A stretch of 64,000 bases of DNA. It comes from Candidatus Omnitrophota bacterium (GTDB lineage: Bacteria > Omnitrophota > Gorgyraeia > Gygaellales > Profunditerraquicolaceae). Where the stretch lies: positions 78,446 to 142,445 of the forward strand of contig JBASUY010000030.1 of assembly GCA_049275655.1 (NCBI GenBank), given 5' to 3'. The notes under the pieces were generated by a model. That model saw nothing but the letters and a program-made list of their open reading frames with translations, was not told where the DNA came from and did no database searches. Position numbers and translations under genes: made by a program. Shown here piece after piece: positions 1 to 21,030 of this stretch; within the stretch, counting starts at the first letter, position 1, and each line of letters begins with the position of its first letter.

Positions 1-428
1 CTTACCTGCCCTCCTGCTAATATCGTGCCGCCCTTATAAGGAGGATAGCAAGGGTCAGGGACAAGAGAATAATCCCCCTGATTTAAGAAGGCAAGAGGAA
101 AATGGGCTATCCCCTCTTTTGAACCGATTAAAGGGAGTATCTGGGTGTTGTAATTGAGGAATACTCCAAATCTCTTTTTATACCAAGAGGCAATTGATTG
201 ACGTAAAAGAGGCATGCCTTGGTCTAAGGCATAACGGTGGTTAGTAGGGTCAAGCGCTGCTTTATGTAAAGCATCAATTATATATTTAGGTGTTGGCTGA
301 TCAGGGTCTCCTATACCTAAATCAATGATATCACGGCCTTCAGCGCGTGCTTTTCTTTTTGCCTTATCTATCTCTAAAAAAAGATAGGGAGGCAAACTAT
401 TTAATTTTTTTGAAAGTTTAAAACTCAT
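1..428 (-). CDS. dapL: LL-diaminopimelate aminotransferase, N-terminal part (gene continues beyond window start)
   Basis: Reverse translation from the ATG at 426-428 gives MSFKLSKKLNSLPPYLFLEIDKAKRKA...DQGMPLLRQSIASWY, a class I aminotransferase N-terminus typical of DapL. It sits at the end of the dapB-dapA-dapF-lysA cluster. An AGGAGG SD lies upstream. Confidence 0.7.
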   Translation of the reverse strand, partial: MSFKLSKKLNSLPPYLFLEIDKAKRKARAEGRDIIDLGIGDPDQPTPKYIIDALHKAALDPTNHRYALDQGMPLLRQSIASWYKKRFGVFLNYNTQILPLIGSKEGIAHFPLAFLNQGDYSLVPDPCYPPYKGGTILAGGQV

Positions 429-435
429 TTATAAT

Positions 436-466
436 CCTCCTAAATTCTAGGGACAGCCCCTGTTGC
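436..466 (-). repeat. Copy 1 of a palindromic intergenic element fused to the dapL SD (minus-strand sense GCAACAGGGGCTGTCCCTAGAATTTAGGAGG)
   Basis: Near-identical sequence also found at 1283-1312 and 20046-20080. It contains the imperfect palindrome GGGGCTGTCCC followed by TAGAATTT and the SD. Confidence 0.6.
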
Positions 467-548
467 AAAACAGTTTCTTTAACAGGGGCCACCCTGCGAA
501 GCAGAGTGTCCCCTGTTATTTACTCCCCTCCTAAATCCTAAGCAATCC

Positions 549-1277
549 CTATTTTAAAACGTCTTGCATTGAATACAAACCCGCCGGCTTTTCAAAAACC
601 CATTTTGCCGCTTTTAAAGCGCCTAATGCAAATAAGTCGCGCGAATGGGCTTGGTGCTTTATCTCTATCCGCTCGGAATTAGCGCAAAAGACAACCGTAT
701 GGTCGCCTATGATATCTCCTAAACGCAGGGAATGAACCGGTATATCTTGTCCGGTTGCATTAGTTAAAACCTCTAATAATTTTTTAGCTGTCCCTGAGGG
801 AGAATCTTTTTTATGCTTATGGTGCGCTTCTATTATCTCAATGGTATAATCGCGCCCTAATTTTTTGGCTATATCAGGCAATATATCAAATAAAGTATTT
901 ATCCCAATGCTAAAGTTAGGAGAAAAGACCACGGGAATTAATTTTGAAACCTCTTTTAATTTATCTAACTGCGCTGAAGTTAATCCTGTTGTCCCTAAAA
1001 TAAGCGCTTTTTTATATTTAGCCGCGTAATCTAAAGTTATGTCCGTAGCTTCGGCAATAGTAAAGTCTATAAGTACATCTACTAAAAAGAGCCCATCAGG
1101 GTTAGAAGATATTTTAAGCTTGCCTATCTCTTTTCCTATAAGAGGCGTGCCTTTTTTCTCTAAAGCCAACGCTACTTCAAAATCCTTATCCTGCAAAGCA
1201 AGTTCAAATATACGCCTGCCCATCCTGCCACAAACGCCGGCAATGCCAAGTTTGATTACTTTTGGGTTAATCTTCAT
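549..1277 (-). CDS. dapB: 4-hydroxy-tetrahydrodipicolinate reductase
   Basis: N-terminal Rossmann motif GIAGVCGRMGRR, typical 242-aa DapB length, located in the dap cluster. Confidence 0.9.
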   Translation of the reverse strand: MKINPKVIKLGIAGVCGRMGRRIFELALQDKDFEVALALEKKGTPLIGKEIGKLKISSNPDGLFLVDVLIDFTIAEATDITLDYAAKYKKALILGTTGLTSAQLDKLKEVSKLIPVVFSPNFSIGINTLFDILPDIAKKLGRDYTIEIIEAHHKHKKDSPSGTAKKLLEVLTNATGQDIPVHSLRLGDIIGDHTVVFCANSERIEIKHQAHSRDLFALGALKAAKWVFEKPAGLYSMQDVLK

Positions 1278-1282
1278 CTCTT

Positions 1283-1312
1283 CTCCTAAATTCTAGGGAC
1301 AGTCCCTGTTGC
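1283..1312 (-). repeat. Copy 2 of the palindromic intergenic element fused to the dapB SD (GCAACAGGGACTGTCCCTAGAATTTAGGAG)
   Basis: Same element as at 436-466, lying 5-9 nt upstream of the dapB ATG. Confidence 0.6.
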
Positions 1313-12146: not shown

Positions 12147-12542
12147 CTACCTCTTAGTCCACTGGAAGCGTTTACGCGCACCCTTTTGGCCGTATTTCTT
12201 ACGTTCCTTAGCCCGGGGGTCGCGGGTTAAATAACCCTGCTTACGCAATAAATCCTTAAAAGCAGGATCTATTAAAACCAAAGCACGCGATATACCAAGA
12301 CGCAAAGCCCCTGCCTGCCCGGTTAAACCTCCGCCTCTGATATTTGCAATGATATCATATTTGTTTATATTATTGGTGGCTTCCAATGGTTGCTTTACTA
12401 TAATCCTATCGGTCTCCCTTAAGAAATACTTCTCATAAGGGCGCTTATTTACTTTGAATAAGCCTTTCCCCGGTATAAGCTGAACTCTTGCCACTGATTC
12501 CTTACGCCTGCCTACTGCTGCATATCTTACTGTTTCACTCAT
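12147..12542 (-). CDS. rpsI: 30S ribosomal protein S9
   Basis: C-terminal GGGLTGQAGA...KKYGQKGARKRFQWTKR is a diagnostic S9 signature. Confidence 0.93.
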   Translation of the reverse strand: MSETVRYAAVGRRKESVARVQLIPGKGLFKVNKRPYEKYFLRETDRIIVKQPLEATNNINKYDIIANIRGGGLTGQAGALRLGISRALVLIDPAFKDLLRKQGYLTRDPRAKERKKYGQKGARKRFQWTKR

Positions 12543-16403: not shown

Positions 16404-16449
16404 GGGGGACAGCGACTTTTAATACCCTATTAAAAAGTCGCTGTCCCCA
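16404..16449 (-). promoter_or_regulatory. Perfect 16-bp intercistronic stem-loop overlapping the leuC stop codon
   Basis: GGGGACAGCGACTTTT (16405-16420) pairs with AAAAGTCGCTGTCCCC (16433-16448). The leuC stop lies in the loop. Confidence 0.6.
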
Positions 16450-18977: not shown

Positions 18978-19007
18978 TACCCCGCCAATTAAAAAAATAG
19001 CGGGGTA
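18978..19007 (-). terminator. Stem-loop (attenuator/partial terminator) between acpP and fabF
   Basis: TACCCCGC ... GCGGGGTA inverted repeat followed by a U-rich tract in the minus-strand sense, 29 nt after the acpP stop. Confidence 0.5.
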
Positions 19008-19294: not shown

Positions 19295-20038
19295 TTATGC
19301 CATCACCATTCCGCCGTCTATAGTAATAACCTGCCCGGTAATATAGCTTGATTCTTCTGAGGCTAAGAATAAACAAAGGTTGGCAACATCCTCAGGTACC
19401 CCTAACTTTGCCATAGGAATAGCCTCCAGCATCTTTTTTTTCACATCCTCCGGAAGCTTAGCAGTCATATCAGTCTGGATAAAACCCGGGGCAACTGCAT
19501 TAGCATTGATATTACGGGTGGCAAACTCTTTTGCCACGGTTTTAGTAAGAGCAATTATCCCTGCTTTAGAGGCGGCATAATTTGCCTGCCCCCAATTACC
19601 CATAAGCCCAATTATGGAAGCGATATTTACTATCTTGCCGCTTCTCTGCTTGATCATGGGGCGGGAGACAGCCTTAATGCAATTAAAAGTACCTTTTAGG
19701 TTTACACTTATAACTGCATCCCACTCTGCCTGAGACATCCTGATAAGGAGATTATCCTTATTAATCCCGGCATTGTTAACTAATATATCAACCTTTCCAA
19801 ATTTGTCAAGAATTTTGTTCACCCCTTCTTCTACTTTTGCGTAATCAGTAACATCCAACTCTAAAGCCATGGCTTTTCTGCCTAAACTCTCAATTTCAGA
19901 GGCAGTCTTGGCAGCTAAATCAAGGTTTAAATCTGCAACAACAATATCCGCACCCTCTTTAGCAAAGGTTAAGGCAATTGCCCTGCCAATGCCTTGGGCA
20001 GACCCAGTTATAAAAGCAACCTTATCTTTTAGTCTCAT
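19295..20038 (-). CDS. fabG: 3-oxoacyl-ACP reductase
   Basis: SDR family ([19 protein letters not shown]), 247 aa, between fabD and acpP. Confidence 0.9.
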
Positions 20039-20045
20039 ATTGACT

Positions 20046-20101
20046 CTCCTTGTTATAAATTCTAGGGGCAGTCCCTATTTCACTGTGGGAGCAGTCCCTG
20101 C
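20046..20101 (-). repeat. Copy 3 of the palindromic element fused to the fabG SD, with an extra tandem half-copy
   Basis: Minus-strand sense GCAGGGACTGCTCCCACAGTGAAATAGGGACTGCCCCTAGAATTTATAACAAGGAGAG, then the ATG. Confidence 0.55.
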
Positions 20102-20109
20102 TATAATAC

Positions 20110-21030
20110 TTAGTTAGATAAATTTAAAATATCCGATGCTTTTTCTATATTTATTACCTTAGCAGATGGTTCTATCTTCCTCATCAAGCCTTTAAGAACC
20201 TTGCCCGGGCCAAATTCAATAAAATCGCTTATGCCTTTAGATAATATATACCTCATTGAATCTTCCCACCTAACTGGAGAATAAATCTGGGAAGCTAAGT
20301 TATCTTTAATTTGAAGAGGATCTACTTGTATATCTGCCGTAAAATTACTTACCACAGGAACAAGCGCATTTTTAATGTTAGTATTCTCTAAAACTTTTTT
20401 TAACCCGGTTGCGGCCTCAAGCATAAATGAAGAATGAAATGCTCCGCTTACCTCTAATGGAATAGCCCTCTTAGCGCCTGCCTCAAGAGAAAGCTCAATA
20501 GCCTTATCTATTTGAACGGGACTGCCGGTTATAACAACCTGCCCAGGGCAATTAAGATTAGCTATCTGTGCTTCAGACTCTGAGCAGATATCTTTTATTT
20601 TTTCTAAGGGCAAATCCAAAATTGCCGCCATCTTCCCGGGAAATTTCTTAGAAGCACCCTCCATTAACTCTCCGCGCGCCTTAATCAATCGGATCCCATC
20701 TTCAAAGCTAATACTCTCGGTAGCTATCAAAGCGCTATACTCCCCTAAGCTCAAACCCGCCATATAGTTAGATTTAATACCACTCTTTGCCTTAAAAGAT
20801 TCAAAAGCAGCGATGCTAACAGTTACAATAGCCGGCTGGGATATATTAGTCGCTTTTAATTTATCTTCCGGGCCTTCAAAACAAATTTGCTTTAAATCAA
20901 AACCTAATAATTTTTGAGCCCTATCAAAGATAGATTTTGCCTCAGGAAAACTATCGTAAAGCTCTCTTCCCATGCCTACGTATTGAGAGCCTTGCCCGGC
21001 AAAGAGAAATGCTGCCTTATCCATCTTCAT
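20110..21030 (-). CDS. fabD: malonyl CoA-ACP transacylase
   Basis: FAGQGSQ and GLSLGEYSAL active-site Ser motif, 306 aa. Confidence 0.9.
   Translation of the reverse strand: MKMDKAAFLFAGQGSQYVGMGRELYDSFPEAKSIFDRAQKLLGFDLKQICFEGPEDKLKATNISQPAIVTVSIAAFESFKAKSGIKSNYMAGLSLGEYSALIATESISFEDGIRLIKARGELMEGASKKFPGKMAAILDLPLEKIKDICSESEAQIANLNCPGQVVITGSPVQIDKAIELSLEAGAKRAIPLEVSGAFHSSFMLEAATGLKKVLENTNIKNALVPVVSNFTADIQVDPLQIKDNLASQIYSPVRWEDSMRYILSKGISDFIEFGPGKVLKGLMRKIEPSAKVINIEKASDILNLSN

Follow-up and report, generated by a model that had tools for sequence, protein, structure and literature searches.

What role a short palindrome might have between two genes of fatty-acid synthesis is the question raised by the fabD-fabG junction of a Candidatus Omnitrophota bacterium. 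Omnitrophota is an uncultivated phylum known from metagenomes only. The element lies at 20039-20109 of a 64,000-nucleotide stretch (hereafter the window, meaning the whole stretch of DNA that was analyzed), and similar sequences precede dapB and dapL in the same window. An initial annotation had described these sites as copies of a functional cis element, such as an internal promoter or an operator bound by a global regulator. The comparisons presented here indicate that the fabG element is probably one copy of a lineage-specific repetitive extragenic palindromic (REP)-like family, of the GTAG/TAG-tagged type, in a clade of Candidatus Omnitrophota.

A palindromic element precedes fabG, dapB, and dapL

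The minus-strand spacer between fabD and fabG (20109..20036) reads gtattatagCAGGGACTGCTCCCacagtgaaatAGGGACTGCCCCTAGAATTTataacaAGGAGagtcaatATG, and from the fabD stop to the fabG start the minus strand reads TAA-gtattatagCAGGGACTGCTCCCacagtgaaatAGGGACTGCCCCTAGAATTTataacaAGGAGagtcaat-ATG, confirming the sequence originally quoted. The spacer at 20039-20109 (minus strand) holds, in order, AGGGACTGCTCCC, AGGGACTGCCCC-TAGAATTT, and a Shine-Dalgarno (SD) sequence. Features of this junction, with position weight matrix (PWM) scores where they apply, are as follows.

20110-21030, minus strand: fabD (NCBIfam)
20087..20099, minus strand: upstream palindromic unit AGGGACTGCTCCC, partly decayed (PWM 15.6 bits)
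20064..20076, minus strand: main palindromic unit AGGGACTGCCCCT, whose fifth stem pair is an A-C mismatch (PWM 21.8 bits)
20057..20064, minus strand: TAGAATTT tail of the repeat unit (sequence comparison)
20046..20051, minus strand: fabG SD, AAGGAG (sequence)
19295-20038, minus strand: fabG, with its ATG at 20036-20038 (NCBIfam)

The main unit is unchanged in 11 metagenome contigs of the same species. The TA of the tail completes the palindrome TAGGGAC...GTCCCTA, and GAATTT forms an A/U-rich spacer before the SD. The unit at 20087..20099, first noted as a "tandem half-repeat," is a decayed partner located 10 nt upstream of the main unit. The half-site AGGGACTGC does occur exactly twice in the window (20091-20099 and 20068-20076), although the spacing given as 22 nt was approximate, being 23 nt from start to start with a 14-nt gap. 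The predicted minimum free energy fold of 20030-20115 pairs GACU.CUCC with GGAGAGUC (z = -1.96), and the CUCC of the upstream unit could pair with the fabG SD. SD sequestration was rejected as a general mechanism, as CUCC is able to pair with the SD only in the fabG copy and GUCCCU is not complementary to AGGAG. In antisense, the spacer resembles a sigma-70 promoter, reading TTCACT-17-TATAAT preceded by TG (20079-20107, plus strand; 10/12) and pointing into fabD; the spacer of a relative (locus L035) is unlike the window over this stretch, and the match is probably due to chance.

A search for the 19-mer GGGACTGCCCCTAGAATTT with up to three mismatches returned three matches in the window, each on the minus strand (20057-20075, 1288-1306, and 442-460), versus 0.02 expected; none of 100 shuffled sequences reached three. 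Likewise, a PWM built from 26 family members exceeded 15 bits in the window at the fabG, dapB, and dapL loci only, and each of these sites is intergenic. A genuine repeated cis element, as first proposed, is thus borne out over chance. Features at the two dap junctions are as follows.

1283..1312, minus strand: dapB copy, GCAAC-AGGGACTGTCCCT-AGAATTT-AGGAG (PWM 24.0 bits), with the dapB ATG at 1275-1277
437..466, minus strand: dapL copy, GCAAC-AGGGGCTGTCCCT-AGAATTT-AGGAG (PWM 22.9 bits), with the dapL ATG at 426-428
527..551, minus strand: decayed copy with a fossil SD, TAG-GGATTGCTTAGGATTTAGGAGG, directly at the dapB stop codon (sequence, fold, and comparison with L032)
483..515, minus strand: inner hairpin CAGGGGACACTCTGCTTCGCAGGGTGGCCCCTG, between the fossil and dapL copies (sequence and fold)

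The dapB copy contains a perfect 6-1-6 palindrome, AGGGAC-T-GTCCCT, with the SD directly after it. Over a 30-nt block, GCAACAGGGRCTGTCCCTAGAATTTAGGAG, the dapB (1283-1312) and dapL (437-466) copies match at 29/30 positions. All three copies are real, but the independent loci number two rather than three because dapB and dapL are adjacent in one operon. Their register relative to the start codon, initially considered the same, is so only approximately, the distance from the end of TAGAAT to the ATG being 12 nt (dapB), 15 nt (dapL), or 20 nt (fabG). Similarly, the common SD arrangement holds at dapB and dapL, where the SD adjoins TAGAATTT, whereas at fabG it lies 6 nt further on. The sequence TAGAATTTAGGAG occurs in the window in the two dap copies and the fossil copy and nowhere else, and is therefore part of the repeat and not of a general ribosome-binding site context.

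The predicted fold of 420-555 (-48 kcal/mol; z = -4.26) joins the fossil and dapL copies in a long-range stem. Within the dapB-dapL spacer (426-551, minus strand), these copies pair around the inner hairpin, an arrangement resembling the paired REP doublets called REPINs. In L032, the closest relative of the window (DapB 94%; 4-fold sites 78% identical), the dapB-dapL spacer is 38 nt, with a single decayed copy adjoining the stop codon and its SD coming next. The window's fossil copy (527..551) occupies the same place as this decayed copy and its SD, which in L032 is in use. Relative to L032, the window has ~85 nt extra, comprising the hairpin, a fresh copy, and a new SD; this stretch has the appearance of a dapB unit that was duplicated locally and recently.

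Copies form a family in related Omnitrophota genomes

Syntenic loci were compared in eight related genomes, with identities to the window ranging from 94% (DapB) to 63% (ArgJ), and the family was counted in ~214 kb from nine related Omnitrophota genomes; individual loci are designated by L numbers. The core R-GGGRC-T-GYCCC-Y was present in 26 copies, all of them (26/26) intergenic, inside unidirectional operons and between unidirectional open reading frames (ORFs). Further copies in comparable positions, as a genuine element had been expected to have, are thereby documented. In the core, the positions GGG.C.G.CC are almost invariant, and the central base on the sense strand is T in 25/26 copies. 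At the variable stem pair, the 26 copies have A-U (18), G-U (5), A-C (2), or G-C (1). The 5' head is GTAG in 9/26; most of the remainder begin with TTAG, ATAG, ACAG, GCAG, or CTAG, and in the window the heads are ACAG (two copies) and ATAG (one copy). Many copies begin at or near the upstream stop codon (0-10 nt after it), and in four cases (L033 argG, L031 dapB, L019 dapL, and the fossil copy at dapB of the window) the TAG of the head itself supplies that stop. Genes downstream of copies include fabG, dapB, dapL, folK, plsX, fabH, leuD, leuB, asd, argH, and the fumarase beta subunit gene, the last of which is separated by its copy from the gene for the other subunit of the same fumarase. Loci occur at a density of about one per 6-25 kb of the sampled stretches, and in one metagenome-assembled genome (MAG) on at least three contigs (L012, L019, and L036). 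Motif scans of genome and metagenome collections with an exact 20-mer gave few Omnitrophota matches because this query is too strict for the variation in the family's flanks.

Copies are arranged singly or as doublets with 3-28 nt spacers; doublets with 3-, 8-, and 28-nt spacers were found at L031, L033, L034, and L036, and their outer ends are complementary (A...C, then G...T). The stem is 5-7 bp (GGGRC/GYCCC plus flanking R-Y and T-A pairs) with an RNAfold loop of 3 or 5 nt. Single copies are predicted to fold at -3 to -7 kcal/mol, and doublets to form hairpins of -20 to -34 kcal/mol (z -2.5 to -4.3) in which a U.U mismatch lies at the center. Such G+C-rich doublet hairpins, of which the one at L033 dapA-dapB is followed by UAGAUUUU, bring to mind an intrinsic terminator or attenuator between cistrons, and REPs can be partial terminators. 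The terminator pattern is approached, however, by some doublets in relatives only. The fabG and dapB copies of the window reach only about -3 to -5.5 kcal/mol before UAGAAUUUA, a poor U-tract, and a terminator scan made no call there; moreover, canonical terminators of the same genomes, such as ACCCCGC...GCGGGGT with a T-run after acpP, are unlike the copies. A terminator is therefore a very unlikely account of the element.

Two subfamilies are distinguished by what follows the palindrome. Type A has the tail TAGAATTT with an SD after it or with the ATG directly adjoining, and includes all window copies, L012, L019, L026, L031, the L033 dapB copy, and L035; type B (L033 argH, L034, L036, and L037) continues ACGACAAGATAAG... 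or ACCRAGCRAGATAAG... to an SD. The type A tail could be read as the -10 box of an internal sigma-70 promoter, TAGAAT matching TATAAT at 5/6 positions, that would give fabG, dapB, dapL, and folK separate, near-leaderless transcripts; at L019 and L026, TAGAAT ends 7 nt before the folK ATG without an SD, the geometry of a leaderless start. This reading is highly improbable. The best -35 hexamer 16-18 nt upstream of TAGAAT matches at 1-3/6 positions in 10/10 copies, whereas the true promoters of the window read TTGAC[TG]-17-TATAAT, and a promoter scan made no minus-strand call at the element. A start 7 nt downstream of TAGAAT would, in the window, land within or past the SD; the L031 ortholog reads TGGAAT, losing the key A at position 2; and type B is a whole subfamily without any TAGAAT. 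Across copies, the distance from TAGAAT to the ATG ranges from 7 to 20 nt. Sigma-54 and extracytoplasmic function-type promoters were also set aside, the GG/GC or GGAAC/CGTC spacing being unfit as judged by eye.

Two further recurring sequences were observed in these spacers. In relatives, a leader after the palindrome, (C)GACAAGATAAG or AGCGAGATAAG followed by GGAGATAAG just before the ATG, recurs at L033 15140-15187; L034 4275-4316; L036 6975-7031 and 4055-4086; and L037 5790-5843, 9392-9424, and 9930-9959. Its 45-nt version is common to L036 fabG, L037 fabG, and L033 argH, and AGATAAG, present twice in the leader, possibly represents a fossil ribosome-binding site together with the active one. 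A second hairpin family is built on this same stem foot, (TA)GGGGACAGCGAC...loop...GTCGCTGTCCCC, has stems ~16-18 bp long, and occurs at 16405-16448 of the window (minus strand), L032 ~1690-1740, L033 4414-4455, L036 ~12282-12325, and L028 12012-12043. Its junctions are leuC-leuD (kept between the window and L032), leuB-asd, and dapL-folK of the window species, which suggests that GGGAC...GTCCC is a stem foot common to several repeat types.

Copies turn over at orthologous junctions and resemble each other within genomes

Between orthologous junctions, the number of copies is 0, 1, or 2, with spacers of 3, 8, 10, or 28 nt. States of the dapA-dapB junction are as follows.

Window: one copy
L031: two copies 28 nt apart and a GGGATATTCCC
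L033: a doublet with a 3-nt spacer
L032: decayed arms, split by ~65 nt of other sequence
L030: none

At fabD-fabG, the palindrome is present in the window, L035, L036, and L037. In L035 (FabD 93%; 2121-2184), both cores look inverted, reading GGCAGTCCCTG versus CAGGGACTGCC in the window and having A at the center, yet the 20 nt downstream, TAGAATTTATAACAAGGAGA, are identical to the window despite the differing palindrome; the L035 spacer is predicted to form a single long hairpin (-18.7 kcal/mol). L036 and L037 have a type B unit here, and the whole spacer is 86% identical between them versus 44-57% at 4-fold sites. L038 instead contains a different ~160-nt repeat that ends in an SD and recurs at another junction of the same genome. 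The two occurrences of this repeat, L034 5370-5590 and L038 10910-11066 (both GCA_041643235.1), lie at non-orthologous junctions and are 78% identical; it comprises a hairpin, CGCCTGNCTGTT...CAGNCAGGCG, and long inverted arms, AAACTCTAAAC/GTTTAGGATTTAG, and ends in TTTAAGGAG (SD).

The dapB and dapL copies of the window, and likewise those of L031, share flanks within their genome rather than with their orthologs, a case of concerted evolution. In addition, a 56-nt composite at L031 dapA-dapB matches one at L033 argG-argH at 50/56 positions (89%), with dapB 4-fold sites only 42% identical. This concerted evolution, the near-identical composites at non-orthologous junctions, and the gain, decay, and inversion of copies between close relatives show that the family spreads or is homogenized by copying. 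The alternative named at the outset, that the copies are recent duplications of a mobile fragment, thus largely describes what was found (dapB/dapL 29/30, likeness within genomes, and the 50/56 composite).

These same observations bear on the proposed operator, in which a dimeric regulator bound to an AGGGAC-N-GTCCCT duplex would co-regulate lysine, fatty-acid, and other biosynthetic genes. A perfect 13-bp palindrome is of typical operator size, its sequence is conserved without covariation, the sites lie just upstream of biosynthetic gene starts, and the fabD-fabG junction carries a palindrome in four lineages. Set against this, there is no promoter to control (no -35 box is present) and the sites are intra-operon, 0-10 nt past the upstream stop, one of them separating the genes for the two fumarase subunits. 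Copy number and spacing are variable, with copies lost or decayed in L030, L032, and L038; spacer and flanks are co-copied between non-orthologous loci; and a symmetric operator would not predict a fixed central T on the sense strand. An operator is accordingly quite improbable. Neither part of the initial proposal, an internal promoter or the operator of a global or pathway regulator, is supported, given the missing -35 box, the intra-operon position, and the variable copy number and spacing.

Asymmetry of the core suggests a constraint on one strand

A test for stem covariation performed no better than shuffles because the core hardly varies, and the evidence is therefore of a conserved sequence and not of a freely evolving structure. 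The sense-strand T in both halves of doublets, together with the excess of G-U over A-C, suggests a constraint on one strand, as RNA or single-stranded DNA. One explanation is a dedicated RNA signal, in which the GGGAC-U-GUCCC hairpin and its 3' UAGAAUUU would be the recognition site of an RNA-binding protein or endoribonuclease on polycistronic mRNA; it would flag the junctions between cistrons for processing or for control of translation, and would be kept by selection, not mobility. The core is almost invariant without covariation, the loop U is on the sense strand in 25/26 copies with both doublet members included, and at the variable pair G-U (5) exceeds A-C (2), all as such a signal would have it. 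Motif and tail are also kept at dapL-folK between L019 and L026 with diverged flanks, and L036 and L037 agree at 86% of spacer positions where synonymous sites are saturated. RNase E has a loose preference for RN|WUU, which GAAUUU would fit. Yet the signal would be dispensable, because copies are absent from L030 and L038 and, at the two dap junctions of L032, present only in decayed form. The L035 core is inverted with A at its center, the tail differs by subfamily (TAGAATTT versus ACGACAAGATAAG), and no partner protein was identified; furthermore, the sampled genes all run one way, which makes a transcription-strand bias inseparable from a replication-strand bias. We consider a dedicated RNA signal of this kind unlikely. 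Rfam gave no match at gathering thresholds over the whole window, and a permissive scan of two regions gave noise only (E >= 0.7, far below gathering).

A combined model, in which the hairpin would be more than a passive REP, is more doubtful still: a strand-specific signal on RNA or single-stranded DNA, with a dedicated protein to read it, would travel as a cassette with a ready-made ribosome-binding site, both creating and renewing translation-initiation regions between the genes of giant one-directional operons. Were it true, the identical 20-mer found in Coriobacteriia and Clostridia (see below) would point to a related recognition enzyme across phyla. More generally, if a protein recognizes the strand-specific loop base, the family would give access to mRNA processing or single-strand transposition in Omnitrophota.

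Genomic setting

DapB, ArgJ, and FabD of the window each have a 100% identical counterpart in a Candidatus Omnitrophota MAG, and the species was found again in several metagenome assemblies, in which the fabD-fabG spacer is identical. We take Omnitrophota to belong to the Planctomycetes-Verrucomicrobia-Chlamydiae (PVC) superphylum. NCBIfam identifies the gene orders dapA-dapB-dapL and plsX-fabH-fabD-fabG-acpP-fabF. Window ORFs of at least 100 aa outside longer ORFs are on the minus strand without exception; intergenic DNA makes up 2.8% of the window, and the plus-strand GC skew is -0.19 across its whole length. Together with L043 (1-10000), the 10 kb beyond the window in the same species, the window (1-64000) forms at least 74 kb of genes on one strand, with many overlaps of 1-40 nt. 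L043 has no further copies, and its intergenic DNA is almost nil. This one-strand region contains arg, dap, leu, fab, and trp genes, translation factors, polA, rho, and the acetyl-CoA synthase/carbon monoxide dehydrogenase (ACS/CODH) genes.

Ordinary terminator-like hairpins also exist in the window. In the acpP-fabF gap (18979-19006, minus strand), ACCCCGC-N14-GCGGGGT is followed by AAGTTTT and is kept in L033-L037, as would suit an attenuator downstream of acpP, a highly expressed gene. The same super-operon bears small insertions in relatives (L034 3121-3414 and 17659-18154; L037 14450-15529), namely a GIY-YIG ORF that separates leuC from leuD, a ParE toxin pair that precedes lysA, and a transposase that has HTH_38 plus a weak rve match and that we take to be IS30-like. 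Because relatives carry these small inserted genes, the array evidently tolerates mobile insertions.

Comparison with known repeat systems

The fabG element is real, and the interpretation that we favor is that it belongs to a lineage-specific, REP-like family, a known kind of element. The unit is a short G+C-rich palindrome, (G)TA-GGGRC-T-GYCCC-TA, single or as a doublet with complementary outer ends. It is placed where very compact operons leave one of their few short gaps between co-directional genes, and most often starts right at the upstream stop or a few bases past it. A type A copy would bring its ribosome-binding site along, because its tail TAGAATTT is followed by the SD. By analogy with REPs, the element would be transcribed in the polycistronic mRNA and act, if at all, as an intercistronic stem-loop with a local influence on decay of the mRNA, on partial termination, or on how the flanking cistrons are translated, most strongly as a doublet. 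The likely role is thus that of a transcribed hairpin modulating decay, read-through, or translation, and a single weak hairpin such as the fabG copy (predicted at about -3 to -7 kcal/mol) probably has little effect. Recognizing the family keeps its copies from being annotated as promoters, operators, or riboswitch-like leaders, accounts for some intercistronic gaps in an otherwise gap-free genome, and provides a marker for strain and species comparison. The SD-carrying subfamily and the fossil SD at dapB-dapL suggest, in addition, that small repeats can rebuild translation-initiation regions.

Several observations weigh against a REP-like assignment. At 11-17 nt, the unit is shorter than classical REPs (20-40 nt), and the head is degenerate in the window species (ACAG/ACAG/ATAG instead of GTAG). 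Copy number looks modest there, with 3 loci in 74 kb, REPs typically exceeding 100 per genome. No REP-associated Y1 tyrosine transposase (RAYT) was seen in Pfam calls, which covered the fetched loci and only the window ORFs at 29.5-50.8 kb; the latter are housekeeping genes (trp genes, aroA, prfA, rho, polA, and ACS/CODH). A core conserved without covariation is equally expected of a protein-binding site on DNA or RNA, and the conservation of the L036/L037 spacer could stem from selection for function and not homogenization. Finally, both doublet members keep T at the sense-strand center, which a simple inverted-repeat (REPIN) origin does not predict. No publication on REP-type repeats in Omnitrophota was found, and a literature search for the core sequence returned unrelated eukaryotic primers only.

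An identical 20-nt core and tail, AGGGACTGTCCCTAGAATTT, occurs in miniature inverted-repeat transposable element-like palindromic repeats of Coriobacteriia (Collinsella ihumii) and gut Clostridia MAGs. Exact 20-mers were located at L014, L020, L022, L023 (Collinsella ihumii GD8), and L025, and in Clostridia MAGs at L011, L013, L015-L018, L021, and L024. Like the Omnitrophota copies, these repeats are multi-copy, often paired, and intergenic where this was judged (L018 and L025). Unlike them, the perfect palindrome in Coriobacteriia extends to 27-31 bp (TGAAATTCTAGGGACWGTCCCTAGAATTTCA), the Clostridia repeats are ~60-nt hairpins with true inverted arms (AAAATTCAGGACAGTCCCCTTTTG...CAAAAGAGGGACTGTCCCTAGAATTTT), and the hosts are unrelated gut bacteria. 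A related mobilizing enzyme, convergence, and chance are all possible explanations of the cross-phylum 20-mer. A BLAST search of plasmids and phages with the 33-nt full palindrome gave no match; scans of viral contigs gave 0 matches to AGGGACTGTCCCTAGAATTT and four single-copy matches to GTAGGGGACTGTCCCC, the latter probably by chance.

REPs inside operons offer a functional parallel, the malE-malF REP of E. coli being one example. Another, REP325 in yjdMN, acts as a partial terminator and mRNA stabilizer (bioRxiv 10.64898/2026.03.23.713779). The Omnitrophota element is alike in being a hairpin between co-transcribed genes, placed, as far as sequence can tell, to shift the ratio of upstream to downstream expression; its single-copy hairpins are predicted to be much weaker.

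The closest likeness is to the GTAG-tagged REPs. These have stems of 5-13 bp, loops of 2-3 nt, and G-T pairs; they lie between unidirectional ORFs near the upstream 3' end, with TAG often serving as the stop codon; their dimers are 1-5 or 20-100 bp apart; and they occur in the PVC superphylum (PMC3733652). Compared with these (Di Nocera et al. 2013, PMC3733652; Nunvar et al. 2010, PMC2817692) and with REP dimers, bacterial interspersed mosaic elements (BIMEs), and REPINs, the Omnitrophota unit is likewise a short G+C-rich stem-loop with a loop of 1-3 nt. Type A differs from the GTAG-tagged REPs in its fixed tail and SD. A GTAG or TAG end is seen in part of the Omnitrophota copies, the head being degenerate in the window species. 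In common with the GTAG-tagged REPs, the Omnitrophota family has a TAG that is often the stop of the upstream ORF, is extragenic between unidirectional ORFs near the upstream 3' end, occurs as singles and as dimers a few or 20-30 bases apart with G-T stem pairs, and is rapidly gained and lost between close relatives.

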